The notes under the pieces were generated by a model. It worked only from the letters and a program-made list of their open reading frames with translations. It searched no databases and had not been told where the DNA came from. Made by a program: the position numbers and the translations under genes. 38,612 bases of DNA from Bacteroidia bacterium (GTDB lineage Bacteria; Bacteroidota; Bacteroidia; B-17B0; Aurantibacillaceae), in NCBI GenBank assembly GCA_016788025.1, contig JAEUTM010000550.1, positions 1-38,612 on the forward strand, in the 5' to 3' direction. Shown piece after piece: positions 1,783-38,612 of the stretch (position 1 is its first letter; each line of letters opens with the position of its first letter).

Positions 1783-3423
1783 ATGAACCCAAATTACATA
1801 GCCCGTACTTTTTTAAATTTTTTTCTTTTATCGCTCACAAACGTTACTTTGTTTGCGCAACCGCAATGGCTCCGGAGTTTCGGAGGATCCGACGCTGAAG
1901 CTGCGGCAAGTATTGCCAGCGATGGAGTAGGTGGTGTATATACCATTGGAACCTTTTCTGGAAATACGGTTTTTGGCTCTTATAATATGTCATCTAATGG
2001 CAAGGGTGATGTTTACATTGTAAAATCAAACGCAGCGAATGGAAATATTTTATGGATTCGCCAGATAGGATCAGCAGGTGAAGACAACGGTTACGGCATC
2101 GTTTGCGATAAATCCGGAAATATCTATTGTACCGGGCGTTTCAGTGGCAACGTTTCGTTTGGTAGCCACGTCCTTACATCTTCAGGGAGCTTCGATGCGT
2201 TTGTCGCCAGGCTTAATCCATCAAATGGACTCGTGACCTGGGCTGTAAATTCCGGAGGAATAGGTTCTGACGCTGGGCTTGCCATCACAGCGGATACTCT
2301 TGGTAACATATTTACCTGCGGTTATTTTCAGATAAAAGGAGTTTTCGGCTCAAACACTCTTACCGCGGTGGGACAAAACCTAAATGCCTATGTTGCGAAA
2401 ATAGATACATCTGGGGGCAATACTCTATGGGCAAACGGTTTTGGAAGTTTAGGTTACACTTATCCGCTTTCTATTTCCTGCGATGCTGCCGGAGATGTTT
2501 ATCTGACAGGCCAATTTGATGGTTCTATGCTGGTTGGTCCCGCAACACTTACCGCAGTTAAGTATAACGATATTTTTATAACCAAGCATAATGCTCTTTC
2601 CGGAACCGCAGTTTGGGCTACTTCTATGGGTGGTGATGGAGATGACATTGGAAATGCAGTTACGATAGGCAGTGACAAACAAGTGTACTTTGGAGGAAGA
2701 TTTGAACAAACATTGAGCTCGGCGCAATCAACACTTGTTTCTAAAGGAAATGCGGATGCAATTATAGGTAAGTTGGATGCGACCACAGGTACAATAAATT
2801 GGTTGAAACAATTCGGTGGAGATAGTTTCGAACAGGTAAACGGAATTGGACATGACGCGTCAGGAAATATTTACTTAACAGGACAATATAATGGTATTTG
2901 TGATTTCGATGTCAATCTGATGATGTCCAATGGAAATGCGGACGTGTTTTTGTGCAGGATGAATAGTTCCGGAAAAGTGACCTGGGATTATAGTATGGGT
3001 AGTCCGCTTGCAGATATCGGATCTGGAATAATATGCGATCAGAGCAATGCAATCTATTGCACCGGGAATTTCCAGAGTTCCATGAAGGCCGAAGCGCAGT
3101 CGGTTTCATCCTCTGGTAGCAGCGATATTTTTGTTATTAAAATTGACAGGCTTAGTGTTGGAGTTGACAACATTAGCATGGAACAAGAGCTGTTAAGTGT
3201 GTTTCCAAGCCCCGCACATGATATTCTTAGAATAACCGGCAAAAAAAATGCCAGGTTGAATTTCACAGTTCGTATTTCAGATATTAGCGGAAGAACCGTT
3301 CTGGAAACGGTCGAAACTGGTGCAGAAGCCGAAATTAATATCTCAGAATTACAGCCAGCAGTTTATATCCTCACCTATGTTTCAGAAGGATCGACACGAA
3401 CCACCAGGTTCATCAAACAATAA
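1783..3423 (+). CDS. T9SS type A cargo with SBBP-like beta-propeller repeats
   Basis: Signal peptide ending FAQ, about 7 repeats of D-x-G-x-x-I-x-x-D-x-x-GN-x-Y-x-TG-x-F, and a C-terminal sorting domain (VFPSPA...DISGR...YIL...RFIKQ). Confidence 0.85.
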   Translation: MNPNYIARTFLNFFLLSLTNVTLFAQPQWLRSFGGSDAEAAASIASDGVGGVYTIGTFSGNTVFGSYNMSSNGKGDVYIVKSNAANGNILWIRQIGSAGEDNGYGIVCDKSGNIYCTGRFSGNVSFGSHVLTSSGSFDAFVARLNPSNGLVTWAVNSGGIGSDAGLAITADTLGNIFTCGYFQIKGVFGSNTLTAVGQNLNAYVAKIDTSGGNTLWANGFGSLGYTYPLSISCDAAGDVYLTGQFDGSMLVGPATLTAVKYNDIFITKHNALSGTAVWATSMGGDGDDIGNAVTIGSDKQVYFGGRFEQTLSSAQSTLVSKGNADAIIGKLDATTGTINWLKQFGGDSFEQVNGIGHDASGNIYLTGQYNGICDFDVNLMMSNGNADVFLCRMNSSGKVTWDYSMGSPLADIGSGIICDQSNAIYCTGNFQSSMKAEAQSVSSSGSSDIFVIKIDRLSVGVDNISMEQELLSVFPSPAHDILRITGKKNARLNFTVRISDISGRTVLETVETGAEAEINISELQPAVYILTYVSEGSTRTTRFIKQ

Positions 3424-6481: not shown

Positions 6482-7021
6482 TCACTGCTTCCAGCCCATT
6501 CTTTTAATCAGGTTTACAACATGGGCCAGGTGATGTTCACAATGCCAGGAATACGAAGCAGTCGCTTCTTTCAGGCTTAATTCTTTACCTTTTTCAGGAT
6601 GTATAAATCCACGGAGCCATTGTTCCTCGTTTAGTGACTTCAAAACAGTTGTCCAGCGGCTATGCACGCCTCTTAAAATAGAAATTGAGCTTTGAATTGG
6701 CATACTGCCATCTGCCAAGTTTGCCCAAAGATCCTGGAGATAGGGTTTAATCGTCGGCCGATCTTCTGTAAGTGCAGCTTTAACGCGAATAATAGCGTTC
6801 ATGTGGCTGTCAGCACAATGGTTTACCACCTGGATCACCGTCCAGCCACCAGGCCTGTATGGAGTGTTTAATTGCTCTGAATTTAATTTTTCAACGGTAG
6901 AAAATAGTTTCTCTGGAAACATTTCGAGGATAGTGATGTATCCATTCAGCTGATCTTTGGTGTAGGAGCCAGGGACCTTAAAACGACCAACCGGGTATTT
7001 CAACAGTTCCAGATCTTCCAT
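6482..7021 (-). CDS. YfiT/BstA-like DinB-superfamily thiol transferase (putative metal-dependent hydrolase)
   Basis: LKYPVG, YRPGGWTVIQVVNHCADSH, PTIKPY and WHCEHHLAH metal-binding His pattern. Confidence 0.88.
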   Translation of the reverse strand: MEDLELLKYPVGRFKVPGSYTKDQLNGYITILEMFPEKLFSTVEKLNSEQLNTPYRPGGWTVIQVVNHCADSHMNAIIRVKAALTEDRPTIKPYLQDLWANLADGSMPIQSSISILRGVHSRWTTVLKSLNEEQWLRGFIHPEKGKELSLKEATASYSWHCEHHLAHVVNLIKRMGWKQ

Positions 7022-7734
7022 TAGCCTAAAGGGGAAGCTGCACTTACAATTTTACCGTTTTCCATGGTAAAAAAATCCGTCATTATTTTACGCCTCATTT
7101 CAATGTAGTCCTGGTATTGTCTCGAATTGTCTTTCCGGCCGGTTATCACATCATCAAAATTCCCATTCAGACCCATTAACAGCTCACAGGCCTCCCTTAC
7201 GGCATACTGGGAGCCCGTTCCGGAGGTAAGGTAGTCAACCAGCTTGTGTTTTTTAAAATAATTAATAAGCAATGGATTTACCTTATGATTAACCATGATA
7301 CGAATACCACAGAGCTCGGCAATCGGAATATCAAGCACATCATCAAAAAAATAGGCAACTTCCTCCGGTTTTAGTTTTTCTTTTTCACACAGAGACTTTA
7401 AAGCTTCTAACTTATGAGGTACTTTAAAATAAGAATACCGAAATCCCTCGCGCTTACTGAAATAAAAAGCAGTTTCGTTTTTTTCGCCACTGATAATGGC
7501 ACTAAGAGGCATATTTCCATGTTTCAGGTAATGGGAAAAACGGAGGAGGTTAGCCCCCATACTGTCCACTTCGCTGAAACAACTGCCTCCTGAATTGGTT
7601 TTTTGCCCGTTATTAAACACTCCGTCCCAATCGAACACAAAGGCTTTAATGTTCTTTAAACGGTCCTGTATTTCTGCAGCGGGCGTTATAAAACGGCCTC
7701 CAATAACACCATATAAGTTCTCGAGTTCTGTCAT
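7021..7734 (-). CDS. KdsC-like HAD (C0 subfamily) sugar-acid phosphate phosphatase
   Basis: IKAFVFDWDGVF (motif I), IISG (motif II), K, YFFDDVLD (motif IV) and AVREACELL. Longer than E. coli KdsC. Confidence 0.8.
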   Translation of the reverse strand: MTELENLYGVIGGRFITPAAEIQDRLKNIKAFVFDWDGVFNNGQKTNSGGSCFSEVDSMGANLLRFSHYLKHGNMPLSAIISGEKNETAFYFSKREGFRYSYFKVPHKLEALKSLCEKEKLKPEEVAYFFDDVLDIPIAELCGIRIMVNHKVNPLLINYFKKHKLVDYLTSGTGSQYAVREACELLMGLNGNFDDVITGRKDNSRQYQDYIEMRRKIMTDFFTMENGKIVSAASPLG

Positions 7735-7763
7735 AAAAAAACCCTTCCGTTAGAGGAAGGGTT
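7735..7763 (-). terminator. Intrinsic terminator-like hairpin between the transaldolase-CBS gene and the KdsC-like gene
   Basis: - strand AACCCTTCC-TCTAAC-GGAAGGGTT followed by a T run that ends at the ATG at 7734. Confidence 0.6.
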
Positions 7764-7768
7764 GTGTT

Positions 7769-8779
7769 TTAGGATTTTAAATCTTGTATATCCAGCATAC
7801 CTACTGGTTTGCCGTTGTCTGTCACCACAATGGTGTCTACGTTGGTTTTTTTGAACAGAATGTTAGCTTCGTTTAGCAGCACATTTCCTTCAATAGTAAT
7901 TGGCTCGCGGTATTCAAGGGCACTTAATTTTTTAGTTAAGATATCGCGACCTTTTTCGCCTAGCAGTTTGCGAAGACCTCCATCTGTAAACACACCACGA
8001 ATGCTTCCGTCTTTTTTAACAACGGTGATAGCGCCGAAGTTAAATTCAGTCAATTTGATAATCGCATCTGTGATATTAGTATCTTCCGGAACAATCGGAT
8101 TTACACCGTTTATAGCTTCCTTCACTTTCACCATCATTAAACGGGTGTCCATAATAAACTGGTCAGTTCCAACAGTGGTGAAATTGTTCTCAGTAAGCTG
8201 TTTCATTATTTTAAGAGGAACCGTAATCGTGTGAACGCCAATATTGATGGCATTACGTACGTGTTCCACGGTTCTAACCGAAGAGAACATTATTTTAGTG
8301 TCATAACCGTAAAGATCAACTGCATCTACACACTGCTGAACCAAAGCCAGGGCATCATGTCCCTGGTCCTGTAAACGACCCACCAGCGGACAAACATAAG
8401 TCGCGCCAGCCTGCATGGCCATGTAAGCCTGCTGCAAGGTATAAACGAGATGTACATTTACGAGATATCCTTTGTCGCGCAGCATTTTGCAGGCACGAAC
8501 TCCTTCGAGGGATACAGGAATTTTAAAAACAGTCTTCTTAGGATCCAGTCCTAACGCAAGCTGCCTTTCGGCTTCTGCCAGAACTTCTTCCGCACTATTA
8601 CCCAAAGCTTCAATCTGAAGCACAGGTACAATCTTGCTTAACTTAACGATGGTACCATCAATATCCGTAATCCCTTCTTTCTGCATGAAAGTCGGGGTGG
8701 TGGTTAAACCGTTTAAAAAGCCAAGTTTAAAACCTTCTTCAATTTCCTTTAAGTTGGCTGAGTCTAAATATAATTCCAT
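7769..8779 (-). CDS. Transaldolase/fructose-6-phosphate aldolase family domain fused to a C-terminal CBS pair
   Basis: MELYLD, GLTTTP, Schiff-base KIP (K86), GR and SVR in about aa 1-215. CBS pair with GVFTDGGLR and PVGMLDIQDL in about aa 218-336. Confidence 0.85.
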   Translation of the reverse strand: MELYLDSANLKEIEEGFKLGFLNGLTTTPTFMQKEGITDIDGTIVKLSKIVPVLQIEALGNSAEEVLAEAERQLALGLDPKKTVFKIPVSLEGVRACKMLRDKGYLVNVHLVYTLQQAYMAMQAGATYVCPLVGRLQDQGHDALALVQQCVDAVDLYGYDTKIMFSSVRTVEHVRNAINIGVHTITVPLKIMKQLTENNFTTVGTDQFIMDTRLMMVKVKEAINGVNPIVPEDTNITDAIIKLTEFNFGAITVVKKDGSIRGVFTDGGLRKLLGEKGRDILTKKLSALEYREPITIEGNVLLNEANILFKKTNVDTIVVTDNGKPVGMLDIQDLKS

Positions 8780-8877: not shown

Positions 8878-8927
8878 CAAAGAAGCCGCTCCGAATCCCG
8901 ATTGTTATCTGGACGGAGCGGCTTTCT
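8878..8927 (-). terminator. Intrinsic terminator after the Omp28-like T9SS gene
   Basis: Perfect 11-bp stem AAGCCGCTCCG (8883-8893) / CGGAGCGGCTT (8914-8924), with a T-rich tail on the - strand. Confidence 0.7.
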
Positions 8928-8948: not shown

Positions 8949-10952
8949 TTATTTACTCACTATGAGTTTTTCCTTCAAGACGGCTTTGCCGGCATGAACC
9001 ACTACCTGGTAAGTACCCGTAGCTAACTCTGAAGTATTGATATTCATTTCGTTTTTACCAGCAGGAACTTCAGTTCCTTTATTTTCATAAACTAATCTAC
9101 CGCTGATATCATAAATAGCTAAGTCTACTTTAGTAGATTTCTCAACATTTAAAGATAAAGTAGCGTAATCTTTAGCAGGGTTAGGGAAAATAGCTAAAGA
9201 TTGGCCAGATGTAAGATCAGCTACGCTGGTAACTGTAGGTTGTGGAGGAGTTGGTACATGAACGCTGTCTGACCATGAAGCAGTTTGTAATACGTGATTG
9301 GTAACAGTATCCTGAATGAACACAACATATTCATATACCAGGTCATTTTTTACAGATGCACCAACAGTACCGCTTGGAGAAGTCCAGAAGCTATAGCTAT
9401 TTTGAGCTGGAGTCGGATCTACATTACGGATAGCAGGTGTATGGTTAAATGAAACGGTAAATGGTGTTCCATCAGTAATTACTGTAGGTGTACCCCAACC
9501 GTTTGGATTCATTTTACGCATGATGTGGAAGTATTCTGTTTGCGGATTGCTAGCAACTGTGCACGTAGAACAAGAAGAGTAGCTGTATCCGGACTGAACC
9601 AACACTTGGTAAACTCTTACAGGAGAATTTGCAGAAATAGTAACCCAAGGTGTAATGGTAGCGCTGGCTGTAACAGTATGGTTAGCGGCTGCAGCAGTAG
9701 ATCCTGTAACAGAAAGAGTAGCGGTGATGTCAGCAAAAGCTGGTTCTAATTTACCTGCGTCGATCTCGGCTTGAGAGTGATTTTGCATTTCAGTTCTTCC
9801 GTTTACAAAAGCTTGAGGTACTGCGTTTACGTCATAGTGAATACGACGTGCAAGTCCATCAGGATTGTAACTAGGATCATCACCAGGAGAAGGCCAGTTC
9901 ATTTGATATTTAATAACATTTACAAGGCCACCGGTATTCGGGTTGTTTCCGTTAAGTAAAGCATTGAAACCGTTTGTTACGTTTAACACACGACAAGGCG
10001 CGCATGTTGACGAAGACCACTCTTCAACCAGTACGTTACGCGTAACGGATTTGCTGGCACGGTAAACAACATAAGAGGTAGTGTCATTGGCTAAGTTTGT
10101 TTCAGCAACACCATTTACATGGCTAACCCATACTTTTATTTTGTTATATCCTAAAGTTAAAGCTGCAGGAGTAGTAAATGAGTAGTTAGTCGATTGACCG
10201 AAGTTTAACGGGCTTCCGAAAGTGAAGGTCTGAGTAGTAACCGCACCATTGTTCACATTGTAGTTTAACACGGCGGTGTTAGCAGGACTGTAACCCATAG
10301 ACTTGAATTGACCTGCGATGTTTGGACTTGCAGAAGCCAGGTAACGTTCCACACTGGTGATACTCACTGCACTTCCGTCGTCAGAAGGGGGTACCATGAA
10401 GTTGAAGTTATCCATCAACAGGATGAATTTGTCATTTGAGTTGTTTACAAATGCAATGTTTACTGTTTGACCAGCATAAGCATTCAGGTTAACCACGCGG
10501 TGAGTCCATGAAGCATTTTCAGCGGATACCGTCAAGAGGTTTGTAGTAAAATTGGCAGTACCAGTACCCGCAGTCGATAACTTCACCTGATAACCATCGG
10601 GATACTGAGGGTCACGTGCGATCGCATCCCACTCGAGGATTCCATTAGCCGGAACTGTAAAAGTTGGCGTAATCAGCCAGTCATTAGAAGTTCCAGTAGG
10701 GTTGTACCATGATGTACTTGCAACGCATTTGCCATAAGTGGGATAAGAAGCAGTTGAGTTGTAAGTAACCCACGCATTTGAACCAAATGCATAAGCACTA
10801 AGGCTTGTTGAAACCGTTAATCCGTCACCATTCACTTGTGTCCATCCAGCCGGAAGTCCGGGAACAGTTGAGGAGCTGAAGTTCTCACTCCACACTTGTG
10901 CGTTCGCCAGGCTAGATCCCAGGATCGCTAAAGCTAATAATTGTTTTTTCAT
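8949..10952 (-). CDS. T9SS cargo: cleaved-adhesin-like domain + Ig-like domain + Omp28-like thioredoxin-fold (CAPC) domain + CTD
   Basis: Signal peptide (ANAQ); NDWLITP...YPDGY...NLNAYAGQTVNIAF; VLVEEWSSSTCAPC; C-terminal IFPNPA...YDISGR...GTYQV...KLIVSK. Confidence 0.8.
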   Translation of the reverse strand: MKKQLLALAILGSSLANAQVWSENFSSSTVPGLPAGWTQVNGDGLTVSTSLSAYAFGSNAWVTYNSTASYPTYGKCVASTSWYNPTGTSNDWLITPTFTVPANGILEWDAIARDPQYPDGYQVKLSTAGTGTANFTTNLLTVSAENASWTHRVVNLNAYAGQTVNIAFVNNSNDKFILLMDNFNFMVPPSDDGSAVSITSVERYLASASPNIAGQFKSMGYSPANTAVLNYNVNNGAVTTQTFTFGSPLNFGQSTNYSFTTPAALTLGYNKIKVWVSHVNGVAETNLANDTTSYVVYRASKSVTRNVLVEEWSSSTCAPCRVLNVTNGFNALLNGNNPNTGGLVNVIKYQMNWPSPGDDPSYNPDGLARRIHYDVNAVPQAFVNGRTEMQNHSQAEIDAGKLEPAFADITATLSVTGSTAAAANHTVTASATITPWVTISANSPVRVYQVLVQSGYSYSSCSTCTVASNPQTEYFHIMRKMNPNGWGTPTVITDGTPFTVSFNHTPAIRNVDPTPAQNSYSFWTSPSGTVGASVKNDLVYEYVVFIQDTVTNHVLQTASWSDSVHVPTPPQPTVTSVADLTSGQSLAIFPNPAKDYATLSLNVEKSTKVDLAIYDISGRLVYENKGTEVPAGKNEMNINTSELATGTYQVVVHAGKAVLKEKLIVSK

Positions 10953-10998
10953 GTGTTAGTTGTTTGTTGTTTGGTTATTGATGTTTATTTGTGTGTGA

Positions 10999-11748
10999 TT
11001 AGTTTAATACGGTAAGTTTTTTTGTGACTAATGTGGAACCATAACGAACGCTTACAAAATAAATGCCGGCGTTAAGATTATCGGTCTCAAGAGTAATAAT
11101 ATTTTTTCCATTGCTAAGGTTAACCTCTTTAGAGTAAACGCGTGCGCCAAGAGAATTAATGATGGATACCTGGACGCCCGAAATTTCACGATCTGAATTA
11201 AGGTTCATGAAAGCGTTTCCAGTTGTTGGATTTGGGAAAATTGAAGACAAACCCGACAATACAGAAGTATTTTTTGAAATACCAGTTGGAGAAGGATTAT
11301 ACTTCATATTAAAATCAAAAGTAGTTGTGTCAGCAGGACCTCTTGCCGAAAACTTGTAATTAACTTCCGAGTAACCGGCAATAATCGCTTCATCCAAATC
11401 GGTTGTAAATGTCATAGTATCACCAGCCGCCAGGTTTATAGATACATTCATGGTGCTTGCGTCATAACAAAGCTCTCCTGTACAGAAATAAGCAAGAGCA
11501 GGATCTTCTGCAGGCGGAGCGTTAAGCGCTACAATTGTTTTGCGAATAGCCACAGTGCGTGTTACAGCGCTGGTATTTTTCATTAAGAAATGATGTGTAG
11601 CTGTCTGGTCAGGAATAGTCTGGTTGATAACAATATCTCCGGTTGCGATGATTGCAGAATTCTGGTTGTTTATGAGTTGGAAATTCTGGCCGGTGAGACC
11701 CAGAGCTGAAATTAAAAGCGCAACAGTACTGATGTAGATCTTCTTCAT
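10999..11748 (-). CDS. Small T9SS type A cargo protein
   Basis: Signal peptide, one ~130-aa domain with YFCTGELCY, and CTD IFPNP...GIYFV...KKLTV. Confidence 0.8.
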   Translation of the reverse strand: MKKIYISTVALLISALGLTGQNFQLINNQNSAIIATGDIVINQTIPDQTATHHFLMKNTSAVTRTVAIRKTIVALNAPPAEDPALAYFCTGELCYDASTMNVSINLAAGDTMTFTTDLDEAIIAGYSEVNYKFSARGPADTTTFDFNMKYNPSPTGISKNTSVLSGLSSIFPNPTTGNAFMNLNSDREISGVQVSIINSLGARVYSKEVNLSNGKNIITLETDNLNAGIYFVSVRYGSTLVTKKLTVLN

Positions 11749-11901
11749 TTTAGTTCAAATTATGTAATTAGTATTAGAACATTAAAAATACGTTATTTTC
11801 ACTTAGATTCAAAGGTTTTGATGAAAATCACCAGCTAAATAAGGCGTTTTTTAACATTGATACTAAAAGTTCAGTCAATTTTGGTAACTAAATATTTAGA
11901 T

Positions 11902-11945
11902 AAAAAAGGCCGCCCCGTTCCGATAATTATCAGAACGGGGCGACC
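11902..11945 (-). terminator. Intrinsic terminator after the second Omp28-like gene
   Basis: - strand GGTCGCCCCGTTC-TGATAATTATCG-GAACGGGGCGGCC-TTTTTT, fully paired allowing G-U. Confidence 0.8.
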
Positions 11946-11964
11946 TACAAAAAGGATAATAGTA

Positions 11965-13953
11965 TTATTTAACCAGGTTTACTTTTTTAACGCTGCTTGA
12001 TCCATTTTCTGAGATCAGCACAACGTTGTAAATCCCTGTTGCAAAATTTTGAACATTAAGATCAATTGAATTTTGACCTGCGCTTAGCGCCAGATCTTTC
12101 GTGTAAACTACCTGGCCTAATGTGTTCACCATTTTTAAAGTAGCTTTGCTATTGTCAGACACCACTGTTTTTACGGTGAGGTTATTACTTGCCGGGTTCG
12201 GATAAATGCTCATCATATCAGCCGAAATCTTTTGGTTTGATAAACCAACAGCGTCAGTTTGAGCAACGTTAACGTTATCAATATAAATGTTGTTACCACC
12301 TGCGGCAGTAGTTACAAATTTGATCAGAACATTTGATTTGTTCATACCCGTTAAAGTAATTACCTCATTTCTCCACAAAGTTACATCGTTAGGAGTTGGC
12401 ACCCATGCAGGATAATAATATGGTGTAGTGGTAGCCAGCTCGGCACCAGATTTAGAGTACATTGGTTCCCAGGAAGCACCACAATCATAAGAAGCTAAAA
12501 CATCCAGAACGTCGTTGTCGCCATCTTGTCTTTGAGCATAAGCAACATCAAAACTCATTTGAATATTGTCTCCACCAATCAGGTCAAGTGGTGGTAGATA
12601 TAGTTCGCCACCGGTACCGGCAACACTATTGTAGAAATCGTATTTGCTTGATTCATACGAATTATTTCCCGCTACTGTTGAACGGGACCATCCTCCACCG
12701 CCAGCAGTATTCAATGCCATCCAGCCGGTAGGAGGATAAATTCCGTACATAAATTCTTCCTGAACAGGAGAATTGGTGAACACCGAAGCCACCATATAAT
12801 TCATTTTACTTGTATTTGAAATCAGGTTATAGTTTGGTATGTTCATTTGAATGTCGCATGAGAAAGTATGCGAACCATTTAACGTTGGAGTGGTTACAGC
12901 ATTCAATTGGATTTGTGTGTTGGCGCCTGCAGCCAGGTTCCCTGTCCATGTTGTTGGATTGCCAGCAATACCATCTACATATGGTGTAATGGTCATGTCA
13001 GTAATTGCGTTGGCTTGTCCTTCGTTAGAAACGGTTACCAAAGGATGAATTAAATTATCACAGGTTACATCAACCACGGGATTGCTAATTGCTGCAGCAT
13101 CTAAAGGGAGAACAGCTTTGTCGGCTCTTGCAGCCTGAGCTACTTTTTTATTTCCATCATCCTGTATAAAACCAACTAAAGCAATTTGTTCTTTACTTCT
13201 TACATAAGAAGGGATAGGGCAGCTCATGGTAAACGTTTGCGATTGACCCAGAGTCCATGTACCTGCCATGGAGATGCCATTTTGTAATGTAGGGAAAGAC
13301 TTGATGGCTACGTCTTCAAAATCTTTTTCACCGTTGGTTCCTGGTTGAGTTGAAAAATGAATTTCGCGTTCTACCATTACAGTTCTGAACTTCAGTGAGC
13401 CCACAGCAGTAAATGGAGCTGTTGCCACAATGTTAACTGTTAAATTTACGGCGGTACAAGAGTGATTCCACTCGCGAGTCATCGTTACAGAGAATGCAGA
13501 TGTATAAGATTGAGCAGTAGCAATAGCTCCATTGGTAAGACTGGCCGGATGATCGGATGAAGATCCGAAAGTCCACTGATGTTGGCCGTCAATACGTCCA
13601 GACGGAGCGGAATTTATACCGTTGCTAACAGCACTTGTGGGGGTACTTTGGCTTGGGTAGCCGTAGCCACCTGATGCCGCGCTTCTGTAACGCCAGTCGA
13701 TCTCAGCCTGGTTGGTTTTGTAAAGCGACCAGGTTGCGCTTGGCACAGAAGGAATTGGCACCTGCCATTTGATGGCAACAATTTTAGAGGCGTTGGTGGA
13801 GGACTTCAAAAGTGCATTTAAACCGGGGTTGGTTGCAGCACATGGTGGACATGTCTCTCCTGTGAATTCTTCATAAAGAGATAAGCGTGGGCTTTGAGCA
13901 ACAAGACTCAAACCACTCAAAATCAAAAACAATGAAAGTAGATTTTTTTTCAT
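11965..13953 (-). CDS. T9SS cargo with an N-terminal Omp28-like thioredoxin-fold (CPPC) domain
   Basis: LYEEFTGETCPPCA, PGTNGEKDF, LVGFIQDD, a beta-sandwich region (FDVAYA...DCGASW...NNIYIDNV) and CTD IYPNPA...GIYNV. Confidence 0.82.
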   Translation of the reverse strand: MKKNLLSLFLILSGLSLVAQSPRLSLYEEFTGETCPPCAATNPGLNALLKSSTNASKIVAIKWQVPIPSVPSATWSLYKTNQAEIDWRYRSAASGGYGYPSQSTPTSAVSNGINSAPSGRIDGQHQWTFGSSSDHPASLTNGAIATAQSYTSAFSVTMTREWNHSCTAVNLTVNIVATAPFTAVGSLKFRTVMVEREIHFSTQPGTNGEKDFEDVAIKSFPTLQNGISMAGTWTLGQSQTFTMSCPIPSYVRSKEQIALVGFIQDDGNKKVAQAARADKAVLPLDAAAISNPVVDVTCDNLIHPLVTVSNEGQANAITDMTITPYVDGIAGNPTTWTGNLAAGANTQIQLNAVTTPTLNGSHTFSCDIQMNIPNYNLISNTSKMNYMVASVFTNSPVQEEFMYGIYPPTGWMALNTAGGGGWSRSTVAGNNSYESSKYDFYNSVAGTGGELYLPPLDLIGGDNIQMSFDVAYAQRQDGDNDVLDVLASYDCGASWEPMYSKSGAELATTTPYYYPAWVPTPNDVTLWRNEVITLTGMNKSNVLIKFVTTAAGGNNIYIDNVNVAQTDAVGLSNQKISADMMSIYPNPASNNLTVKTVVSDNSKATLKMVNTLGQVVYTKDLALSAGQNSIDLNVQNFATGIYNVVLISENGSSSVKKVNLVK

Positions 13954-23692: not shown

Positions 23693-26632
23693 TTAACGTT
23701 GGATAACAATTCTTTTAGTGATTTCCCGGTTTCCGTTCCTGAGTTTAAGCAGATAGACTCCCGAAATCTGACTTTCCAGGTCAATAATTTTGGAAAGGTT
23801 TGTGCTAAACGTGTTAAACGTTTCTGTATAGATACAAGACCCAAGAAGATTGTAGATCGCAATATCTGTTTGTTCCGGCGAGAGACCATTCACAGAGATC
23901 GTAAATCTGCCATTGTTGGGATTTGGATAAGCTGAATAACCTGTGTTAAGCACCTCTTCATTAACCCGCAACGAAAGCGCAGGCGGAATCACATTTACAT
24001 TCACAATTCCTGAGGTTTCTTCAGATCCTTTACTCAGGAGTTGGTTCATACAAAAGGACGAAACTGACCCGCAGGAAGCAGTCACAGTGAGACATATGGA
24101 GTAAGTGCCTGAAGCCGAATACTGGTGTGAAGTATAAAGTGTATTACTGGTGTCGCCATCGCCCCAAGTCCAGCTTGCAGCACTTAAATTCCAGGGATAG
24201 TCGGGAATAGCGAACCAGTATCCAGCGCTGTTGGTTGGGATGAGTGTAAAATTAGATATCGCACTACATGGAATCCCAGTAACATTAATATACTGTGCGA
24301 GACTGTCGTGGCAAATTGGAGTAATAGTGTCCTTTATTGTTAACGACACGAGATAACTTCCCGCATTACTGTAGTTATGAATTGGATTCGTTGCATAAGA
24401 AATCACACCGTCTCCAAAGTTCCAGTAATTTTTAGCATAAGCCTGGTTATTATACGTAGACGTGTTGCTGAAATTTACAGAACCGTTTAAACCCAGAGTG
24501 TGCGAAAAATTTGCAAGCATATTACAGGTATAGCTTGTCGTTACAAACAAGGTATAGCTGCTAGTACAAACTGGCCAGCCACTGGCATTACTCGCAAACA
24601 AATGCACTTGATATTGACCCATTGTACTGTAGGTGTGAACGGGTTGAAAGCTGTTAGAAAAGGTCCCGTCGCCAAAATCCCATGTATAAGATGTTGAAGC
24701 CACCGTTCCGGTTGTGGTGTTCGTAAATGAAAAAGTATTTGTGCTTACAAGAATCGCTAAAAAGTCCGCATTAAGATTGCAAGGCGTACCGGGTACCAAT
24801 ACAGTTTGACTATTTGAAGATGAACAGCCTCCTGGACTAGTGAGAATATGAAGGGTGACTGTGTAAATGCCTGGAGCAGGATAAGTATAATTAGAAGAAA
24901 CGCTGCCAGCAAGCGAAGTCCCAGTGCCATAATCCCAGGTATAAGTGGTTGAAGACCCGGCGCCAGAAGATGTGCTGAGAAACGAAACATTCCCATTGGA
25001 ATTTGCTGCATAAGTAAAGCTGGCGTTACAGGTGCCGGAATTGACGATAGTAACAGTATGCATCACAGAATCAATGCATCCAAAACCGCTGTTTGCAATC
25101 AGTTTAACTGTAAAGGTGCCATTGGCAGAATAAAGATGAGAAGTACTGGTTCCGCTACCTATGGCCGAGTTATCTCCGTAGTCCCACGAATAAGTGGTTA
25201 AGGTATTTGCACCGGTACTGGTGCTTGAAAATGAATACAAACCAACGGCACCCGGCGTACTTATAAAATTGGCATCAATGGTACATGTAGGATTTACAGG
25301 AGCACTAATGGCCAGGGAACAAAAAGGAGCGCTGCTCGCTATCCCATACATAACCTGGTAAACCGCATTGGATGTATACGTGTTACTTACAACAAACGAA
25401 TTTGTTCCCTGCGCGGAATTGCCGTCTCCGAAATACCAATAATGGAAAGTGTTGGTGTTGCTTGGACTTGCGGTACCGGTAAAGTTTACCACACTGCTAG
25501 TGGTTTGTGAAACAGCATTAAAGTTCAGGGAACATACGCTGACACTTAAAGCAAATGACGAGGTGCACGACGCGATAAATGGATTGCTCGCAATAAGCTG
25601 GACCGTGTACAACCCAGTGGATGAATAAGTATGGATGGAAGGAAATGTATTGGATGTGGCTCCGTCGCCATAATTTACAGTATAAGATGTGCCGGAATAC
25701 ACTCCCTGCGAAGTGTTTTGAAGACTAATGCCTCCATTGATCTGAGTATAGTTAAAACCTGCCTGGAGATTACAGCCAGCGGAAGTATAAGTGCTGACAA
25801 CTAAAGTTTTGGTAACGGAACCAGAATACGGCGGATTTGTGGCATTAGTAATCTGGAGGGTTACTGGGTAGGCACCATTTGAGGTGTACATTACAACTGC
25901 ACTTGGAGTTCCGGTTACAGTATAGTTGGGCTGACCATTGCCGTAATTCCAATCGTAATCAGTAAATGTGCCCGCAGGAGCAGAAATACTTGTGAGTGTA
26001 AATATGCCAGAGCCGGATGGTGTGTTTGTAAAATTTACTAAACCTGCAACAACCGGCATAACTGTACTTTGAATACAGCCTTGCGTAGTATTATTTATTG
26101 CAGTTAGATAAACTAAATATGCACCAGGAGTAGTATATGTATGCGATGTTGCAGAACCTACACCCGTGGTGCCGTCTCCGTAATTCCAACTGTATGTTGT
26201 AGAACCCGTTGTGCCGGTGGAATTATTTATGTAGGTGTTTACAAGATTATTACCCTGTGAGTATCCAAATTGAGGCACAATCCCGCAGGTACCTCCGGTA
26301 AGAGAATTCACCATGATATTTGTAGTCATGGTATCTATACAACTTCCAGAGAAATAAGTCAGACTCACAGGGTAAACACCGTTTAATGTGTATGATGTGA
26401 AGGCTGTAATGGTTCCTCCGGAAGTAATGCTGGAACTACCGTTTCCGAAAGCCCAGGTATAGGTGCTTCCAGAAGTAGTAGGAGAGGAAGTGCTTAGAAA
26501 TGTGGCATTGCCATTTGCAGCCAGCGTGTACACAAAAGAAGCATTGCATTGCGCAAGCCCCGTTTTAACGCATACCGTTAGGAGTAACGATACAAATATC
26601 TTAATGCTCTTCTGTAAAGCCCGGAATTTCAT
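23693..26632 (-). CDS. Poly-PKD-domain T9SS cargo protein
   Basis: Signal peptide (GLAQ), about 10 PKD units (C-x-A-x-F...F-x-x-TS...Y-x-W-x-FGDG...H-x-Y...G-x-Y-x-V-x-L) and CTD AYPNPNNG...GVYLL...KRIVIQ. Confidence 0.88.
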   Translation of the reverse strand: MKFRALQKSIKIFVSLLLTVCVKTGLAQCNASFVYTLAANGNATFLSTSSPTTSGSTYTWAFGNGSSSITSGGTITAFTSYTLNGVYPVSLTYFSGSCIDTMTTNIMVNSLTGGTCGIVPQFGYSQGNNLVNTYINNSTGTTGSTTYSWNYGDGTTGVGSATSHTYTTPGAYLVYLTAINNTTQGCIQSTVMPVVAGLVNFTNTPSGSGIFTLTSISAPAGTFTDYDWNYGNGQPNYTVTGTPSAVVMYTSNGAYPVTLQITNATNPPYSGSVTKTLVVSTYTSAGCNLQAGFNYTQINGGISLQNTSQGVYSGTSYTVNYGDGATSNTFPSIHTYSSTGLYTVQLIASNPFIASCTSSFALSVSVCSLNFNAVSQTTSSVVNFTGTASPSNTNTFHYWYFGDGNSAQGTNSFVVSNTYTSNAVYQVMYGIASSAPFCSLAISAPVNPTCTIDANFISTPGAVGLYSFSSTSTGANTLTTYSWDYGDNSAIGSGTSTSHLYSANGTFTVKLIANSGFGCIDSVMHTVTIVNSGTCNASFTYAANSNGNVSFLSTSSGAGSSTTYTWDYGTGTSLAGSVSSNYTYPAPGIYTVTLHILTSPGGCSSSNSQTVLVPGTPCNLNADFLAILVSTNTFSFTNTTTGTVASTSYTWDFGDGTFSNSFQPVHTYSTMGQYQVHLFASNASGWPVCTSSYTLFVTTSYTCNMLANFSHTLGLNGSVNFSNTSTYNNQAYAKNYWNFGDGVISYATNPIHNYSNAGSYLVSLTIKDTITPICHDSLAQYINVTGIPCSAISNFTLIPTNSAGYWFAIPDYPWNLSAASWTWGDGDTSNTLYTSHQYSASGTYSICLTVTASCGSVSSFCMNQLLSKGSEETSGIVNVNVIPPALSLRVNEEVLNTGYSAYPNPNNGRFTISVNGLSPEQTDIAIYNLLGSCIYTETFNTFSTNLSKIIDLESQISGVYLLKLRNGNREITKRIVIQR

Positions 26633-26647
26633 ACTGTCAGTTCAATC

Positions 26648-27760
26648 TTATCTGTATGCAACACAAATAACTGTTTCAGCGTCGGTAAGTTTAATTACTT
26701 TGTTCCCATTATAAACCTTGCAGCTGAAACGAATCTGTAATTTCACAGTAGGCTGACCTTTCTCGTTCAGGCCTCCATTACTGATAGATGTCACTTCAAA
26801 ATAAGCATCATCTGATTGCTGCCCGGTGTTTGAAACATATTCCACGCCGCTCGCGTCTTTCCATGATACCGCCACATTTGACAAAGCAAGATTTGTTTGC
26901 ACAGGGCTAATGTTAGCAACAGAATAGTTCGTAGCGCAAGACGACATATCGTTTTGTGTAACTGCATTAAAATTCGCTCTGGCGGTATCATTTTTACTGT
27001 CAATTATCATAAGCGACACAGGATAACCGCCACGGTATTTATAGTTACATACAGGGTTAACGGCGGTAGAAGTGCTGCCATCACCAAAACTCCAGAAGTA
27101 TTTAAAAGGGGCGGTACCGCCCGAATAGCTGCTCGCAAACACGACTGTATTGCCATTGCTTGAAAGCACGCTGATGGAAGCTTTGAAAGGATTTCCTGAC
27201 TCGACACGCTGAACGTTGCAGATGGTGCTCATGCAACCGTTGTTGTTTCGGGTAGTTAAGCATACATTGTATTTGCCGGGCTTAATAAACGTATGTACAG
27301 GGTCTTTTTCTGTAGAAGTTGTTCCGTCACCAAAATTCCAGGCATACTCGTCGGATACTACAGACGATTTAAAATTAACCGAATATGAAAGTTCTTTTGC
27401 GCCGGCAAAGAAACCGTACTTTCCCATCTTGAATGAGGAGTCTGCGATCACCGGGGAGTTAAAAACGGAGGTTTTGTAATCGTTGATCTGGATTTTGAGA
27501 CTGTTGGTACAGTTATCGCAAGTGCTTTTTTTCAGTTCCCCGATAAAACCATAAACATTATTGGAATCCTGTTTGTACGAGGAGTACATATAATAATCGT
27601 CAATACCCGCCTGAAGCGTAAGAGGTAAATCGTTTACCTTCAACCTGGAGTAATACACGGGAGCATTCGTAATCACCACATCTTCCGGGTACTCCTTCTT
27701 CTTGCAGGACAAGCTCGTTATCAGAAGCGCAAATATTAAGCTATATGTGAGAAGCTTCAT
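26648..27760 (-). CDS. PKD-domain lipoprotein
   Basis: Lipobox SLSC-KKKE and two PKD units (WNFGDG, WSFGDG). Confidence 0.82.
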   Translation of the reverse strand: MKLLTYSLIFALLITSLSCKKKEYPEDVVITNAPVYYSRLKVNDLPLTLQAGIDDYYMYSSYKQDSNNVYGFIGELKKSTCDNCTNSLKIQINDYKTSVFNSPVIADSSFKMGKYGFFAGAKELSYSVNFKSSVVSDEYAWNFGDGTTSTEKDPVHTFIKPGKYNVCLTTRNNNGCMSTICNVQRVESGNPFKASISVLSSNGNTVVFASSYSGGTAPFKYFWSFGDGSTSTAVNPVCNYKYRGGYPVSLMIIDSKNDTARANFNAVTQNDMSSCATNYSVANISPVQTNLALSNVAVSWKDASGVEYVSNTGQQSDDAYFEVTSISNGGLNEKGQPTVKLQIRFSCKVYNGNKVIKLTDAETVICVAYR

Positions 27761-27763: not shown

Positions 27764-29398
27764 TTATTTTTTTAGAATATTATAAACCAGTGAAATTTTT
27801 AAGCCAGTGTTTCTTTCAAATACATTTGAATGAAAAAAGGTGTTGTCTTTTGTGTCAACCAGACCGTAGAAAAGTTCGGCATTGAATGAAAGATTTGAGA
27901 GCAAGCGGCGACGATAGAACACGCTGGTCTGAACATCAAGGGGGCTGAATCCTTGGGTGTAACCTTTGTCTTTGTAGATGGTGTGCCCATCTGTGGAATT
28001 GATCGTTTGATGATAGGTCTCCACATCCGATTCAACAGTTAAGAGATAGGCAAAATTGCATCCCAACCCAACAATGTTCTTTTGATTGAGTCGATAGTGG
28101 ACTCGTAACGGGGCTAGCAGGTAATGTATTTTGGTAGGTGTAAACACAGTCACGGTACTTTCTTCACCAAGTCCAAGCTGACTTACTTTTGTGACGTGGT
28201 TGCTATAGTTCAGATTGGAAACAGTAGTGTATTGGAGCCCCAGGGATATGGTAAGTTTATTATGTACCGCCTGGAAATAATTAATGCCGACAAATGGGTT
28301 GTATCCGGCGGCGTCTGTATTTCCCGGATTCTTCCAGCCATAAAAATAACTAACACCTGCTTCTATGGAAAGAAAAACAGGTTTCTCTTTAATGTCATAG
28401 GTTAGTTTTGTGGCATGGTCGTTTTCAAGCATAGCGCTGTCAGGGGCAGGCAGAAGAGGGTAAATGCCGACACCTTTTGGTGGTTCTGAACTGGATTTTG
28501 AAGACAATTCCGGATTTTTGACTTCGTTAGCAAGCTCTGGGTTAATCTGAACAGGTTGAATAAGGGTGGAGCGCGGGTTTTGTTCTTCTTTTAATTCTTT
28601 ACTCTCCGATTGTTGAGAGGAATCGTTGTCTGTTAATCCCAACAGTTTTGTACTTGTATTTATTTCTTCTTCCTCACTGGCGCTAACTGTTTCCGGCTCA
28701 GATTTTATTTCTGGTTTAACCTGGGCCAACATTTTGATGTCTGGAGTAACATCTGAATTGTTGTCGGTTACTGAAGTCGCCGGTCTGATCTCTGATTTTG
28801 ATTCCCCGGACTGAATACTAACTGATGCAGTTGTTTGAGTTTGTGCCTCGGTCGTTTTCTCCGGGAAACTTGTAAGTGCAACTTCTTGCTTCGGTTTTGA
28901 TTCTCTGACAGGAGTTGTGTTTTCAGGAATGAGCTTTTCAACGATAGGATCCGCAACGGTTTTTGCAGGGTGTGTATTGTTTGTAATATGTGCCGCTGTT
29001 GTCGTTTCAATGATTGGAGCCGCTTCTTTCTCAGATGATTTTAGAATCGGCTTTGTTTTTGGACGCACATTTGTCTTTTCTCCAGCACTTATACCTGTTT
29101 TTTGAAGATTTTCGTTTTTGACAACATCTTGAGAGCTTCCAGATATGACTCTTTCCACTTTAGGTTTGGCCGCGGTTATTTTTGGACTATCGGAAGGATA
29201 TAAAAGATATGCGCCGGCAATGCCAGCTATAAAAAGCAATAAGGATGAAAGAACTATCGAAGTACCTTTCCACCCCCTGGCGCCCCTGGACGCTTCTATC
29301 ATCTCACTGGCCTTTTCCCAATTAGCTTCATCAAATTCAAATTCTTTTGAATTGACCAAATCGCTTAGCGATTTCTTGAATTTGCCTTCGTTATTCAT
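27764..29398 (-). CDS. Putative anti-sigma factor: short N-terminal domain + TM helix + long low-complexity linker + C-terminal outer-membrane beta-barrel-like domain
   Basis: Overlaps the sigma stop codon. N-terminal F-D-E-x-x-W motif, hydrophobic helix at about aa 45-66, S/T/E/K/P-rich region at about aa 70-335, and alternating beta-strand pattern from about aa 340 (YLLAPL, YGLVD, GLKISLVYNI). Confidence 0.62.
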   Translation of the reverse strand: MNNEGKFKKSLSDLVNSKEFEFDEANWEKASEMIEASRGARGWKGTSIVLSSLLLFIAGIAGAYLLYPSDSPKITAAKPKVERVISGSSQDVVKNENLQKTGISAGEKTNVRPKTKPILKSSEKEAAPIIETTTAAHITNNTHPAKTVADPIVEKLIPENTTPVRESKPKQEVALTSFPEKTTEAQTQTTASVSIQSGESKSEIRPATSVTDNNSDVTPDIKMLAQVKPEIKSEPETVSASEEEEINTSTKLLGLTDNDSSQQSESKELKEEQNPRSTLIQPVQINPELANEVKNPELSSKSSSEPPKGVGIYPLLPAPDSAMLENDHATKLTYDIKEKPVFLSIEAGVSYFYGWKNPGNTDAAGYNPFVGINYFQAVHNKLTISLGLQYTTVSNLNYSNHVTKVSQLGLGEESTVTVFTPTKIHYLLAPLRVHYRLNQKNIVGLGCNFAYLLTVESDVETYHQTINSTDGHTIYKDKGYTQGFSPLDVQTSVFYRRRLLSNLSFNAELFYGLVDTKDNTFFHSNVFERNTGLKISLVYNILKK

Positions 29399-31477: not shown

Positions 31478-33013
31478 CTACAGGCTTTCTGCAGCCCGCA
31501 TGGTGGCCATGAACCAATGGTTTGGTAAAGTGTTCTTCTTTACCAGGAATAAGCCATAGTCGTCTAATTTTTCTAATTGCAAATCCTTTCTCCCGGCAAG
31601 TTTTTTATCGAGATTATAATCTGTTGAAATGTAAAGGAAGCTCTCGAAGACCTTATTCTTATTTGGTTCGCGCACATAGTAGCGTCTCTCTGAGTTTGTT
31701 TCTTCTGTATTCGGAAAATCTGGATATATAGCTGGCCCCCCATAATCAAGATAAGTACTTAACCAAAAACCATTCGAGATTATAAGTCGATCCAGATGAT
31801 ATTTTTCGCAGACCGCTTTGTATCCTTCGGCGGATTTTTTGATCTCCTTCAATGAAACCAGATGCACTCCAAGCCAATGGCTTTGTTCTGTATGGTAGTT
31901 AATGTTATCATTAAACCAAAGCAGTTTATAACCGGAAAAAAGCAAGCTCACTACTGTAACAGTTGAGATAAACATTTTTGAAAGCTTTAGGCGTGCACAG
32001 ATTAATCCAATGATTAGGGGAATACCAAGATACATGCGACTGAAAGAATAAAAGGGCCAGGCAGCTCCGTCGCGTACCTTGCCAGAAAGAAAGGAAAACA
32101 GAATCATAAAAATTAAACTCAGGAATGTGAAGAATAATATCTTTTCTTTTTTGAATGTAACCCACGCAAGAAAAGCAAAAACCAAGAGCAGGCACCAACA
32201 TTTGTCTTCCATAAAAAAATTAATGTGTTGGAATGCCTGGTCGAGATGCCTTAAATTTTCCAATAAATACGCAGGTGAAATAGCATAAACCAGTTCAAAG
32301 ATCACATATTCAGGATGGTTTTTATAGAATTGGTTAAACAAGAGATGGAGTGGAATTACCAAAAGCAAACAACTAAACATTGCATAGTAGTAAGCCTTCT
32401 CCTTATAGTTATTGAGGAAAAGAAACATGGCAAAGGGGAAGCTAACGATGAGCGAATTCGGGTTTACAAAATAGCCTACAATGCACATCAACGTATTTAA
32501 AACAGCAAACCTGAAGGAATGCGGATTGAGAAAACTAAGTATGTAAAAACTGCAAAAGAAAAGACCTGTCACAAAACCTCGCGGTAAACTGTTTAGAATG
32601 TCGTAACCAGACGGAAGGCACAGTACCAGCGCTAAAACAAGCAGAGCGTTTTCCTTTTTCTGATTCCTGAAAAGATAAATTGACGTAAATAAAAAAGGAA
32701 AGAGGTATATAAAATGGGTGGCTATGGGAACGGCATAATAAACCGGAAAGCCGAGCCAAAGAAGGGGTACAGCAAAAAGACCTTCCATAAACGTATTGTA
32801 GTCCTGGCCGTAAAATCGCGGTTCGTAAAACAAGAGCTTAGAATAATCTACAGCACCAATCCAAACGAAGGGTTGATCGGAATCGATAAAATTAATGTTG
32901 ATGCTAAAAAATAAAAGGATGCGGATGGTAAGGATGATGCAAAGGCATAAAAAGAAAGAAAGATTAATAATAAAATCCTTCTTATTTTCTTTTATAAGAA
33001 CTTGTTCCACCAT
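31478..33013 (-). CDS. Multi-pass membrane protein, possible GT-C fold glycosyltransferase
   Basis: About 10-11 hydrophobic segments, an acidic DSDQ and FYGQDY loop after TM1, RMY after the late TMs, and a soluble C-terminal domain. Confidence 0.5.
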   Translation of the reverse strand: MVEQVLIKENKKDFIINLSFFLCLCIILTIRILLFFSININFIDSDQPFVWIGAVDYSKLLFYEPRFYGQDYNTFMEGLFAVPLLWLGFPVYYAVPIATHFIYLFPFLFTSIYLFRNQKKENALLVLALVLCLPSGYDILNSLPRGFVTGLFFCSFYILSFLNPHSFRFAVLNTLMCIVGYFVNPNSLIVSFPFAMFLFLNNYKEKAYYYAMFSCLLLVIPLHLLFNQFYKNHPEYVIFELVYAISPAYLLENLRHLDQAFQHINFFMEDKCWCLLLVFAFLAWVTFKKEKILFFTFLSLIFMILFSFLSGKVRDGAAWPFYSFSRMYLGIPLIIGLICARLKLSKMFISTVTVVSLLFSGYKLLWFNDNINYHTEQSHWLGVHLVSLKEIKKSAEGYKAVCEKYHLDRLIISNGFWLSTYLDYGGPAIYPDFPNTEETNSERRYYVREPNKNKVFESFLYISTDYNLDKKLAGRKDLQLEKLDDYGLFLVKKNTLPNHWFMATMRAAESL

Positions 33014-37229: not shown

Positions 37230-38612
37230 ATGAACCCAAAGATCTTAGCACTGTTTTTTTTAATTTCTTTTTATGTTAAGTCGCAACATAGCCAATTTAC
37301 CTGGCTTAGCGGTAACCCTACTCTGGCTGTAAGCCCAATTTATGGCACACAGGGTGTTGCTTCGGCAACAAATAATCCAGGTGCAAGATACAACTGCAGT
37401 TCATGGAAGGACAATGCGGGGTTTCTCTACTTGTTTGGCGGCACTGACAATTCAGGGGCCTCTTATAACGATCTTTGGAGATATAATACAAATACTGGAG
37501 AATACACCTGGCTGAAAGGGTCAAACTCAACAAACCAATACGGTAGTTATGGGACTCAGGGCGTTTCTTCATATACAAATACGCCAGGCGCGAGGCAAGG
37601 GGCAATGACCTGGGTTGACAATTCCGGGAATTTCTGGCTGTTTGGTGGAAAAGGTTATTCCATACCAATGGGATTTAATCTGGGCCCCGGCTATTTAAAT
37701 GACTTATGGCGCTATGATGTTTCAACCAACGAATGGACCTGGGTTTTGGGAACATCTTCTACCTATAATATTAATGGCGTTCACGGTACTCAGGGCGTGT
37801 CAACAGCTTCAAATTTTCCTGGCTCCAGGGATTTCGGTGCTACCTGGAGTGACAACTCCGGAAACTTGTGGCTGTTCGGAGGCCTGGGGTACGACGGATC
37901 TTCAAGCGCGTCCTATTCTGTTCTTAATGATCTTTGGAAATACACCATCAGTACCAATCAATGGACCTGGATGGGAGGAGATGTTTTGGCGAACTACAAC
38001 GGCGTGTACGGCACTAAAGGATTAGCCTCATCTTCAAACAAACCGGGTGCGAGGCGTAACACTGCTTTCTGGAAAGATGCCGCGGGTGATTTCTGGATGT
38101 TTGGCGGTTATGGCTTTCCAAAAAGTTTTGGAGGAACCATCGATCCTCTTAACGATCTTTGGAAGTACAGTGTTTCCACCAATGAGTGGACCTGGGTAAG
38201 TGGTTCGGATCTAAGTTATCAGGTTGGAAACTATGGTTGCATTGGAATTCGTGCTTCTACAAATGTTCCGGGGTCAAGAAGCGAGATGCTTGCCTGGAAT
38301 GACGGCAATGACGTAATCTGGATCCAGGGTGGTACTGGTCGGGGGACATCGTCTAACGGAAGTTTGAATGATCTTTGGCGTTATGAAACAAATACCAACA
38401 CCTGGACGTGGATGAAAGGAAGCTCTTCACCGGGGGTAGCAGCAATCACTGGTACTATGGGGATTCCTTCACCGCTCAACGTTCCTGGATCCGGCATAGC
38501 AACAAACTGGGTCGATAATAACGGTAAGTTCTGGGCATTTGGAAGGCCAAATAATGTAATGTGGAGTTTTACCCCTCCTTGCAGTTCCTCTACGCTAACG
38601 CCAGCAGTGATT
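37230..38612 (+). CDS. Secreted Kelch/galactose-oxidase-like beta-propeller protein (partial, runs off the window end)
   Basis: ATG at 37230, MNPKILALFFLISFYVKSQ signal peptide, then repeats GTQGV...PGAR...W-x-D-x-x-G-x-x-(W/Y)LFGG...NDLW(R/K)Y...WTW. No stop seen in this frame, which would explain its absence from the ORF track. Confidence 0.85.
   Translation, partial: MNPKILALFFLISFYVKSQHSQFTWLSGNPTLAVSPIYGTQGVASATNNPGARYNCSSWKDNAGFLYLFGGTDNSGASYNDLWRYNTNTGEYTWLKGSNSTNQYGSYGTQGVSSYTNTPGARQGAMTWVDNSGNFWLFGGKGYSIPMGFNLGPGYLNDLWRYDVSTNEWTWVLGTSSTYNINGVHGTQGVSTASNFPGSRDFGATWSDNSGNLWLFGGLGYDGSSSASYSVLNDLWKYTISTNQWTWMGGDVLANYNGVYGTKGLASSSNKPGARRNTAFWKDAAGDFWMFGGYGFPKSFGGTIDPLNDLWKYSVSTNEWTWVSGSDLSYQVGNYGCIGIRASTNVPGSRSEMLAWNDGNDVIWIQGGTGRGTSSNGSLNDLWRYETNTNTWTWMKGSSSPGVAAITGTMGIPSPLNVPGSGIATNWVDNNGKFWAFGRPNNVMWSFTPPCSSSTLTPAVI

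Follow-up and report, generated by a model that had tools for sequence, protein, structure and literature searches.

Introduction

Synthesis of Kdo, an outer-membrane sugar, is usually described as one invariable route, KdsD-KdsA-KdsC-KdsB. The sugar phosphate that KdsA uses, arabinose 5-phosphate (A5P), also binds transaldolase covalently. In the T. acidophilum transaldolase, T110 and F132 presumably lie at the catalytic water and S130 at the C1 hydroxymethyl, and we take the acid/base arrangement of FSA to be Q59 plus Y131 (among the PDB titles are 4rxg, Q59E, and 4xz9, E60Q/F132Y). FsaA makes A5P from glycolaldehyde and G3P, in engineered cells as well as in vitro, and the TalB variant F178Y reportedly yields both A5P and ribose 5-phosphate (R5P) (PMC9947464). 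A second paper describes the TalB (F178Y) product from these two substrates as one that was assumed to be A5P (PMC8208507), an account that weakens the two-epimer precedent.

Here, we analyzed a window of 38,612 nucleotides (the whole stretch of DNA under study, contig JAEUTM010000550.1 of a Bacteroidia bacterium) that encodes a TalC-type barrel joined to a CBS pair, hereafter the fusion (Table 1). We propose that the fusion replaces KdsD and supplies A5P to an altered KdsA (probability roughly 0.6), most likely via Schiff-base C2 epimerisation of R5P. Judged by title and abstract opening, no paper in the literature covered, which included few subscription papers, describes this fusion family.

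Table 1. Coordinates of the fusion, its parts and its candidate partners.
Feature	Position	Strand	Remarks
TalC-type barrel-CBS fusion, ORF	7769..8779	-	336 aa
TalC-type (beta/alpha)8 barrel of the fusion	8138..8779	-	residues 1-214
KdsD-like CBS pair of the fusion	7769..8137	-	residues 215-336, plus stop codon
H110 codon of the fusion	8450-8452	-	
C130 codon of the fusion	8390-8392	-	
Long KdsC-like HAD phosphatase	7021..7734	-	237 aa; D35-x-D37, K108, D131-D132-x-x-D135 kept
Terminator-like hairpin and T run, between fusion and phosphatase	7740..7763	-	consensus match only
Altered KdsA of the host genome (G000)	C293:11106-11957		outside the window; passes TIGR01362 and PRK05198 cut-offs

Results

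A transaldolase-type barrel is fused to a KdsD-like CBS pair

The fusion matches Pfam TAL_FSA over residues 3-201 (E 2e-35) and Pfam CBS in two stretches (E 1.5e-12). A SIS domain is absent from its N-terminus, and the match to TIGR00393 covers model positions 151-267 only. All residues named in the first-pass annotation, namely D6, T28 (TTTP), E57, K86, H110 (NVHL), C130 and L132 (CPL), and R135, are present in the sequence, as are the CBS motifs GVFTDGGLR and VGMLDIQDL. The barrel retains D6, E57, K86, N108, R135, S167 and R169; in an alignment to the T. acidophilum transaldolase, the counterparts of D6, T28, E57, K86, H110, C130, L132 and R135 are D6, N28, E60, K86, T110, S130, F132 and R135. 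The same annotation had held that the protein fits neither the canonical transaldolase nor the FSA signature. It scores 161.2 bits against TIGR00875 (below its equivalog threshold of 245.95 bits) and 90.6 bits against PRK12653 for FSA (cut-off 306 bits). The fusion fell under the cut-offs of every transaldolase, FSA and KdsD model searched. By the sequence features tested, the fusion belongs to neither the KdsD, the transaldolase nor the FSA family.

An AlphaFold model built from a 56-sequence alignment reached a mean pLDDT of 92.7 and is closest in structure to small transaldolases (1vpx: target TM 0.93, rmsd 1.6 A). Databases name homologues of the fusion transaldolase or TalC/MipB aldolase. 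Complex prediction for the fusion with its own KdsA (alignments A3 and A4) gave a score of 0.00 with no folded controls to set it against, and speaks neither for nor against an interaction.

The CBS pair had been likened to the C-terminus of KdsD, and its three best PDB matches are all CBS pairs of arabinose-5-phosphate isomerases (4o9k, E 1.5e-16; 3fna, 8e-8; 3k2v, 4.6e-7), followed by the next CBS protein at 3.3e-5. G268 of the TDGGLR motif is D in 48 of the 56 aligned family members. In a CBS tree, from which six misfiled fusion or duplicate rows were left out, the CBS pairs of the fusion and of KdsD fall in one poorly resolved group (support 83), which the CBS of IMPDH joins on a long branch as an artefact.

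The fusion family is widespread and has its own active-site signature

Since the 120 best of 3836 homologues contain both domains (87-95% identity; Bacteroidota where named), the fusion is not an assembly artefact. A relative is encoded by 510 of 599 stretches in a genome collection, and full-length relatives extend down to ~30% identity. With a query from another lineage, 3552 proteins were found at E 1e-90 among 8000 candidates, Gammaproteobacteria where named. A search for the fusion on plasmids gave no match at E 1e-40.

H110, C130 and L132 are present in all 160 fusion loci inspected (80 close and 80 distant), where ordinary transaldolases read T, S and F, with N at position 28 too, in every case (n = 24). 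D6, E57, K86, R135, S167 and R169 are conserved across the family wherever covered, while position 55 varies among Q, H and M (n = 56 aligned members). In a quick tree, the family splits from 17 ordinary transaldolases on one branch (SH-aLRT 100). The TTTP motif, which had been put forward as a mark of the protein, does not define the family because N replaces T28 in 7 of the 56 aligned members.

Four degenerate barrel-CBS paralogues (P0125, P0128, P0137 and P0149), which have lost K86, H110 and C130 and kept the CBS pair, cluster with the Bacteroidota fusions and are possibly inactive regulatory subunits. We also noted barrel-only proteins of 209-223 aa (P0136, P0153, P0156, P0161 and others) that carry H110, C130 and L132 and have no CBS pair.

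The fusion and KdsD exclude each other

The host genome is 91.6% complete and encodes KdsA, KdsB and WaaA, all above cut-off. Matches to the KdsD model in this genome are confined to the CBS pairs of the fusion and of IMP dehydrogenase. No SIS-only isomerase was found there either; on sequence inspection, its SIS matches are GlmS and MurQ-, PGI/PMI- and GmhA-like proteins. A separate, canonical TalC with TTNP, NCTL and SPF is encoded on contig C558, and the fusion is therefore unneeded as a housekeeping transaldolase.

We define a carrier as a genome that encodes the fusion. Five carriers were found among 400 evenly drawn Bacteroidota genomes (65-77% identity; the next best match was at E 1e-42). 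For the comparison with KdsD, 30 of the 400 genomes were chosen, comprising the five carriers and 25 of their kin. KdsD exceeded its cut-off in none of the five carriers vs 23 of the 25 non-carriers, and the two non-carriers lacking KdsD also lack KdsA. Both genera g38 and g35 contain fusion carriers as well as species with KdsD. A hidden SIS-only KdsD in the five carrier genomes was considered and rejected, as their SIS matches were GlmS pairs or weak and partial. KdsD was likewise found in none of 50 further carriers (taken from 80 close genomes, mostly MAGs whose completeness is not given), which brings the total, with the host genome, to 0 of 56 carriers, although these are kin and the counts are not independent. 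Among the 80 distant metagenome loci, many of them on short contigs, the SIS domain of KdsD was matched in none, KdsA in 70 and KdsB in 12; a WaaA representative falls in a cluster covering 39 of 85 loci. The proposal of the first-pass annotation that the barrel stands in for the SIS domain of KdsD is thus supported by the finding of KdsD in none of the 56 carriers and by KdsA in 70 of the 80 distant loci. RpiB is present in all five carriers and so does not discriminate an epimerase from an isomerase.

Collectively, these results establish the fusion as a real, widespread and uncharacterised protein that probably resembles KdsD in pathway role.

An altered KdsA accompanies the fusion

Residues of KdsA are numbered as in A. 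aeolicus (Aquifex). The KdsA of the host genome has KDNRS, PAYLCMQ, HCVR and CD vs KANRS, PAFLCRQ, HSVQ and SD in A. aeolicus, and the changes in the carriers are Q188R, A47D, R106M and a C232 that occurs together with C11. Among the 400 Bacteroidota genomes, this altered KdsA is found in exactly the five fusion carriers, in four of which its gene immediately precedes the fusion on the upstream side. Of the 50 further carriers, 49 have it too, with identities of 77-95%, and one of the 49 has a second KdsA of 46% identity; in the host's own clade, none of the 80 close loci has KdsA within 7 kb of the fusion. Where the sites are covered, fusion-linked KdsA of the distant loci has R188 in 66/66, C232 in 68/68, D47 in 56/57 and M106 in 56/59 cases; by contrast, the KdsA of all 23 KdsD genomes has Q188, S232, A47 and R106. 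KdsA sequences from elsewhere among bacteria also keep A47, R106 and Q188 (8 of 8), a set from which a Variovorax row in the wrong reading frame was left out. The exceptions among fusion-linked KdsA are that of L224, a KANRT protein with Q106 and R188, and those of L216 and L217, which keep R106.

We take the altered positions, including Q188 and R106, to line the A5P site. The altered KdsA retains K46, N48, R49 and S/T50, the pentose-length motif; metal and PEP ligands and the length of this motif are unchanged. The available portions of PMC6650799 and PMC3052366 contain no residue-level statement on A5P-site positions. C232 alone was rejected as a mark of the altered KdsA, as E. coli and Acinetobacter, whose KdsA is of the non-metal type, have it too (PMC3052366); its combination with C11 is unusual within the KdsA set examined. 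The altered KdsA is an obligate partner of the fusion that the first reading had overlooked.

The KdsA motifs are intermediate in the deep-branching fusion loci L216, L217, L224 and L235, which form part of glycosylation clusters that also contain genes of radical-SAM-like proteins and glycosyltransferases. In G194, genes of the iron-ADH family and for a DegT-family aminotransferase were seen upstream of the altered kdsA (L124:12058-14374 and L123:2575-3678); the former is found in G266 also, and the NCBIfam matches of both are generic only. This pair presumably resembles KdnB/KdnA for 8-amino-Kdo.

WaaA follows the host, and KdsB does so in part

In a quick WaaA tree with six carriers, grouping is by host family and not by fusion; the tree requires five changes of carrier status, and 114 of 500 shuffles gave values as low. 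As WaaA follows host ancestry, the product is probably ordinary Kdo. Acceptance of the product by the native WaaA favours Kdo, and a close analogue is still compatible. In the KdsB tree, four of the six carriers form a clade (100/98), a pattern that would fit joint adaptation to another sugar, and the other two, G124 and G310, fall with their non-carrier kin.

The neighbouring phosphatase is a looser partner

The phosphatase beside the fusion had been called KdsC-like. Its HAD motifs are indeed kept, but it lies below every KdsC cut-off (59.5 vs 208 bits and 44.9 vs 107 bits), has SGE/TGE where KdsC has the TGR specificity motif, and carries extensions. Homologues at 40-53% identity are present in all five carriers, while the 25 non-carriers gave only matches of at most 35%; the long phosphatase is a distinct subfamily found in fusion carriers. 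Its linkage is preserved downstream of the fusion in 69 of the 80 close loci, but a short, ordinary KdsC takes its place in several distant fusion loci. An additional ordinary KdsC-family gene is present in three of the five carriers, including the host genome. These two observations rule out the phosphatase as an obligate partner, and it is a looser partner of the fusion than KdsA. From its match to the terminator consensus, the hairpin between the two genes may uncouple their transcription here.

A YfiT neighbour was rejected as a conserved partner since it occurs in only 2 of 80 close loci. Elsewhere in the window, an inverted repeat seen by eye at 8882-8926, after the gene of a T9SS-sorted protein (8949-10952), likely separates that gene from the fusion. 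T9SS-sorted proteins are encoded at 8949-13953, 1783-3423 and 23693-27760, and this set includes two thioredoxin-like CxxC/CPPC proteins and PKD-repeat proteins. No Pfam match was found for the ORFs at 27764-29398 (544 aa), 31478-33013 (511 aa) and 37699-38025 (108 aa).

A parallel module pairs an Rpe-like epimerase with a CBS pair

In 3 of the 400 Bacteroidota genomes (L156:281-2749, in G198:C6; L364, in G214; L365, in G098), we found an Rpe-like epimerase fused to a CBS pair, followed by a DAH7P-synthase-like gene and then by KdsC. The DAH7P-synthase-like gene is an extra copy with KPRTS, and GAKAMY for GARNTQ; the KdsC passes TIGR01670 in G198, a genome that also has KdsB and WaaA. Neither KdsA nor KdsD was found over cut-off in the three genomes. 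This module could epimerise E4P to threose 4-P, giving a seven-carbon Kdo analogue. A further genome, G378, has KdsB and WaaA, and no KdsA, KdsD, fusion or Rpe-CBS module was found in it; possibly it uses a further route or takes up Kdo.

Discussion

The fusion very probably feeds KdsA in place of KdsD. That its product is A5P and the end product of the pathway Kdo is a somewhat less secure step, which we nevertheless favour. A5P corresponds to fructose 6-phosphate minus C1, and its aldehyde would thus meet K86 while its phosphate would lie at R135/S167/R169, with D6 in the same conserved register. R5P and A5P differ only at the carbon adjoining the imine; R5P could be epimerised at C2 through an imine with K86, with H110 (together with E57) and C130 as the putative acid/base pair that inverts this carbon. 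Inversion might be direct, or might proceed by retro-aldol/aldol chemistry with G3P retained. The CBS pair is predicted to bind CMP-Kdo or a nucleotide for feedback. The Rpe-CBS module, which precedes a non-standard ulosonate synthase, offers an indirect analogy in favour of an epimerase. The changes in KdsA count against our proposal because they have no obvious need if the substrate is plain A5P, and an enaminol on lysine risks Amadori inactivation, which counts against epimerase chemistry. Taken overall, we regard such chemistry in the fusion as less likely than not, and place it ahead of each of the alternatives below.

The same genomic evidence would fit a non-homologous ribulose-5-phosphate/A5P isomerase, in which ribulose 5-phosphate binds in the register of A5P and protons are transferred through a cis-enediol by K86, H110, C130 and D6, with no lasting Schiff base. 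This would be a like-for-like exchange of the SIS domain before the CBS pair, and a Cys and His pair near C1 is reminiscent of RpiB-type isomerases. However, on general grounds a Schiff base at the ketose C2 ends in an unproductive amino sugar and K86 would be captured by A5P as an imine, and the altered KdsA is left unexplained. We consider such an isomerase unlikely.

An equally unlikely alternative takes the altered KdsA as its starting point: the fusion would make another aldose phosphate, and from this and PEP the altered KdsA would build an isomer or analogue of Kdo that KdsB and WaaA accept. R188, C232, D47 and M106 in place of Q, S, A and R, the distinct phosphatase subfamily and the KdsB clade of four carriers all speak for a different sugar. 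Nonetheless, WaaA does not cluster by carrier status, the KdsB of G124 and G310 sit with non-carrier kin, ordinary short KdsC serves several distant loci, and the length of KxNRS is retained, with L224 having a KANRT synthase beside its fusion.

The first-pass annotation had leaned towards an FSA-like aldolase that condenses free glycolaldehyde with G3P to A5P, a route that we rate as quite improbable. H110 could fill the acid/base role that Y131 has in FSA, but the fusion retains E57 and has L132 where FSA has its tyrosine, and no glycolaldehyde-producing gene recurs in the 85 loci, although the clustering was noisy. While FsaA performs this reaction, its affinity for glycolaldehyde was concluded to be too low for flux from ethylene glycol (PMC9947464). 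A specialised transaldolase that frees A5P from D-glycero-D-ido-octulose 8-phosphate, a metabolite of the kind proposed for an L-type pentose pathway, would agree with the retention of E57 and K86 and with transaldolases as the closest solved folds, yet the evidence for that pathway has been questioned (PMC4470864, for both points), no dedicated transketolase recurs in the 85 loci and an ordinary transaldolase is already present in the host, so we hold it to be highly improbable. Just as improbable is a further transaldolase of the ordinary kind, regulated by its CBS pair and with no connection to Kdo, for which the database names and the 0 of 80 close loci with a nearby KdsA could be cited, against a score of 161 vs 246 bits (TIGR00875), the separate clade (SH-aLRT 100), the exclusion of KdsD and the co-occurrence of the altered KdsA.

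Returning to the proposal that the fusion replaces KdsD, the pair of fusion and altered KdsA likely produces a precursor of Kdo in a way not yet described. This analysis adds the co-altered KdsA and the parallel Rpe-CBS module. Considering both modules jointly, we tentatively suggest, at somewhat less than even odds, that the fusion and altered KdsA together are an entry to ulosonates in its own right, exchanged horizontally and based on new transaldolase-fold chemistry, and that it is one of at least two unrecognised KdsD-free routes. The new chemistry would be that of a Schiff-base aldose-phosphate 2-epimerase, or would deliver a non-A5P aldose for a Kdo analogue; the second route would consist of the Rpe-fold/CBS epimerase and its DAH7P-synthase-like partner, which could give a seven-carbon Kdo analogue from threose 4-phosphate. 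The Rpe-CBS module might bear on the origin of the seven-carbon lyxo-heptulosonates; PMC3355719 gives the activated form of Dha as unknown. This module also points to more variation in the LPS linker sugar, or in the chemistry of its precursor, than has been supposed. The fusion family, in Bacteroidota and, by source names, in Gammaproteobacteria, probably swaps the first Kdo step, and the second enzyme is co-altered at residues conserved elsewhere. If the proposal is true, it would add a new reaction to the transaldolase fold and fill a pathway hole in hundreds of genomes that are annotated with a second transaldolase.

Comparison with known systems

Compared with the small TalC-type transaldolases (B. 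subtilis 3r8r, T. maritima 1vpx and T. acidophilum 3s0c), the fusion has the same fold and has D6, E57 (E60), K86, N108, R135, S167 and R169 in common. It differs in the invariant changes T110H, S130C and F132L, in A166S and S58Q/H, in having mostly T for N28, and in its extra C-terminal CBS pair; identity is 32-35%, below the family cut-off. E. coli FsaA (1l6w) shares the fold and the Schiff-base lysine, but the fusion instead has the transaldolase-type glutamate (E57) and L132 in place of the FSA tyrosine, and FsaA aligns to it worse than transaldolases do (E 6.6e-15 vs 4e-38).

The altered KdsA keeps C11, H185, D233, K46, N48, R49, K124 and R154 of the metal-dependent A. aeolicus KdsA (1fwn). 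It differs from that enzyme in KDNRS for KANRS, PAYLCMQ for PAFLxRQ and HxxR for HxxQ, in having C232 along with C11, and in a new conserved loop, R[KR]YG[IV]P. Finally, KdsD/KpsF/GutQ (4o9k, 3fna and 3k2v) have an N-terminal SIS domain, which the fusion lacks, and the distribution of the two across genomes is mutually exclusive; both end in a CBS pair of the same type, and the fusion likewise sits in kdsA/kdsB/kdsC/waaA clusters.
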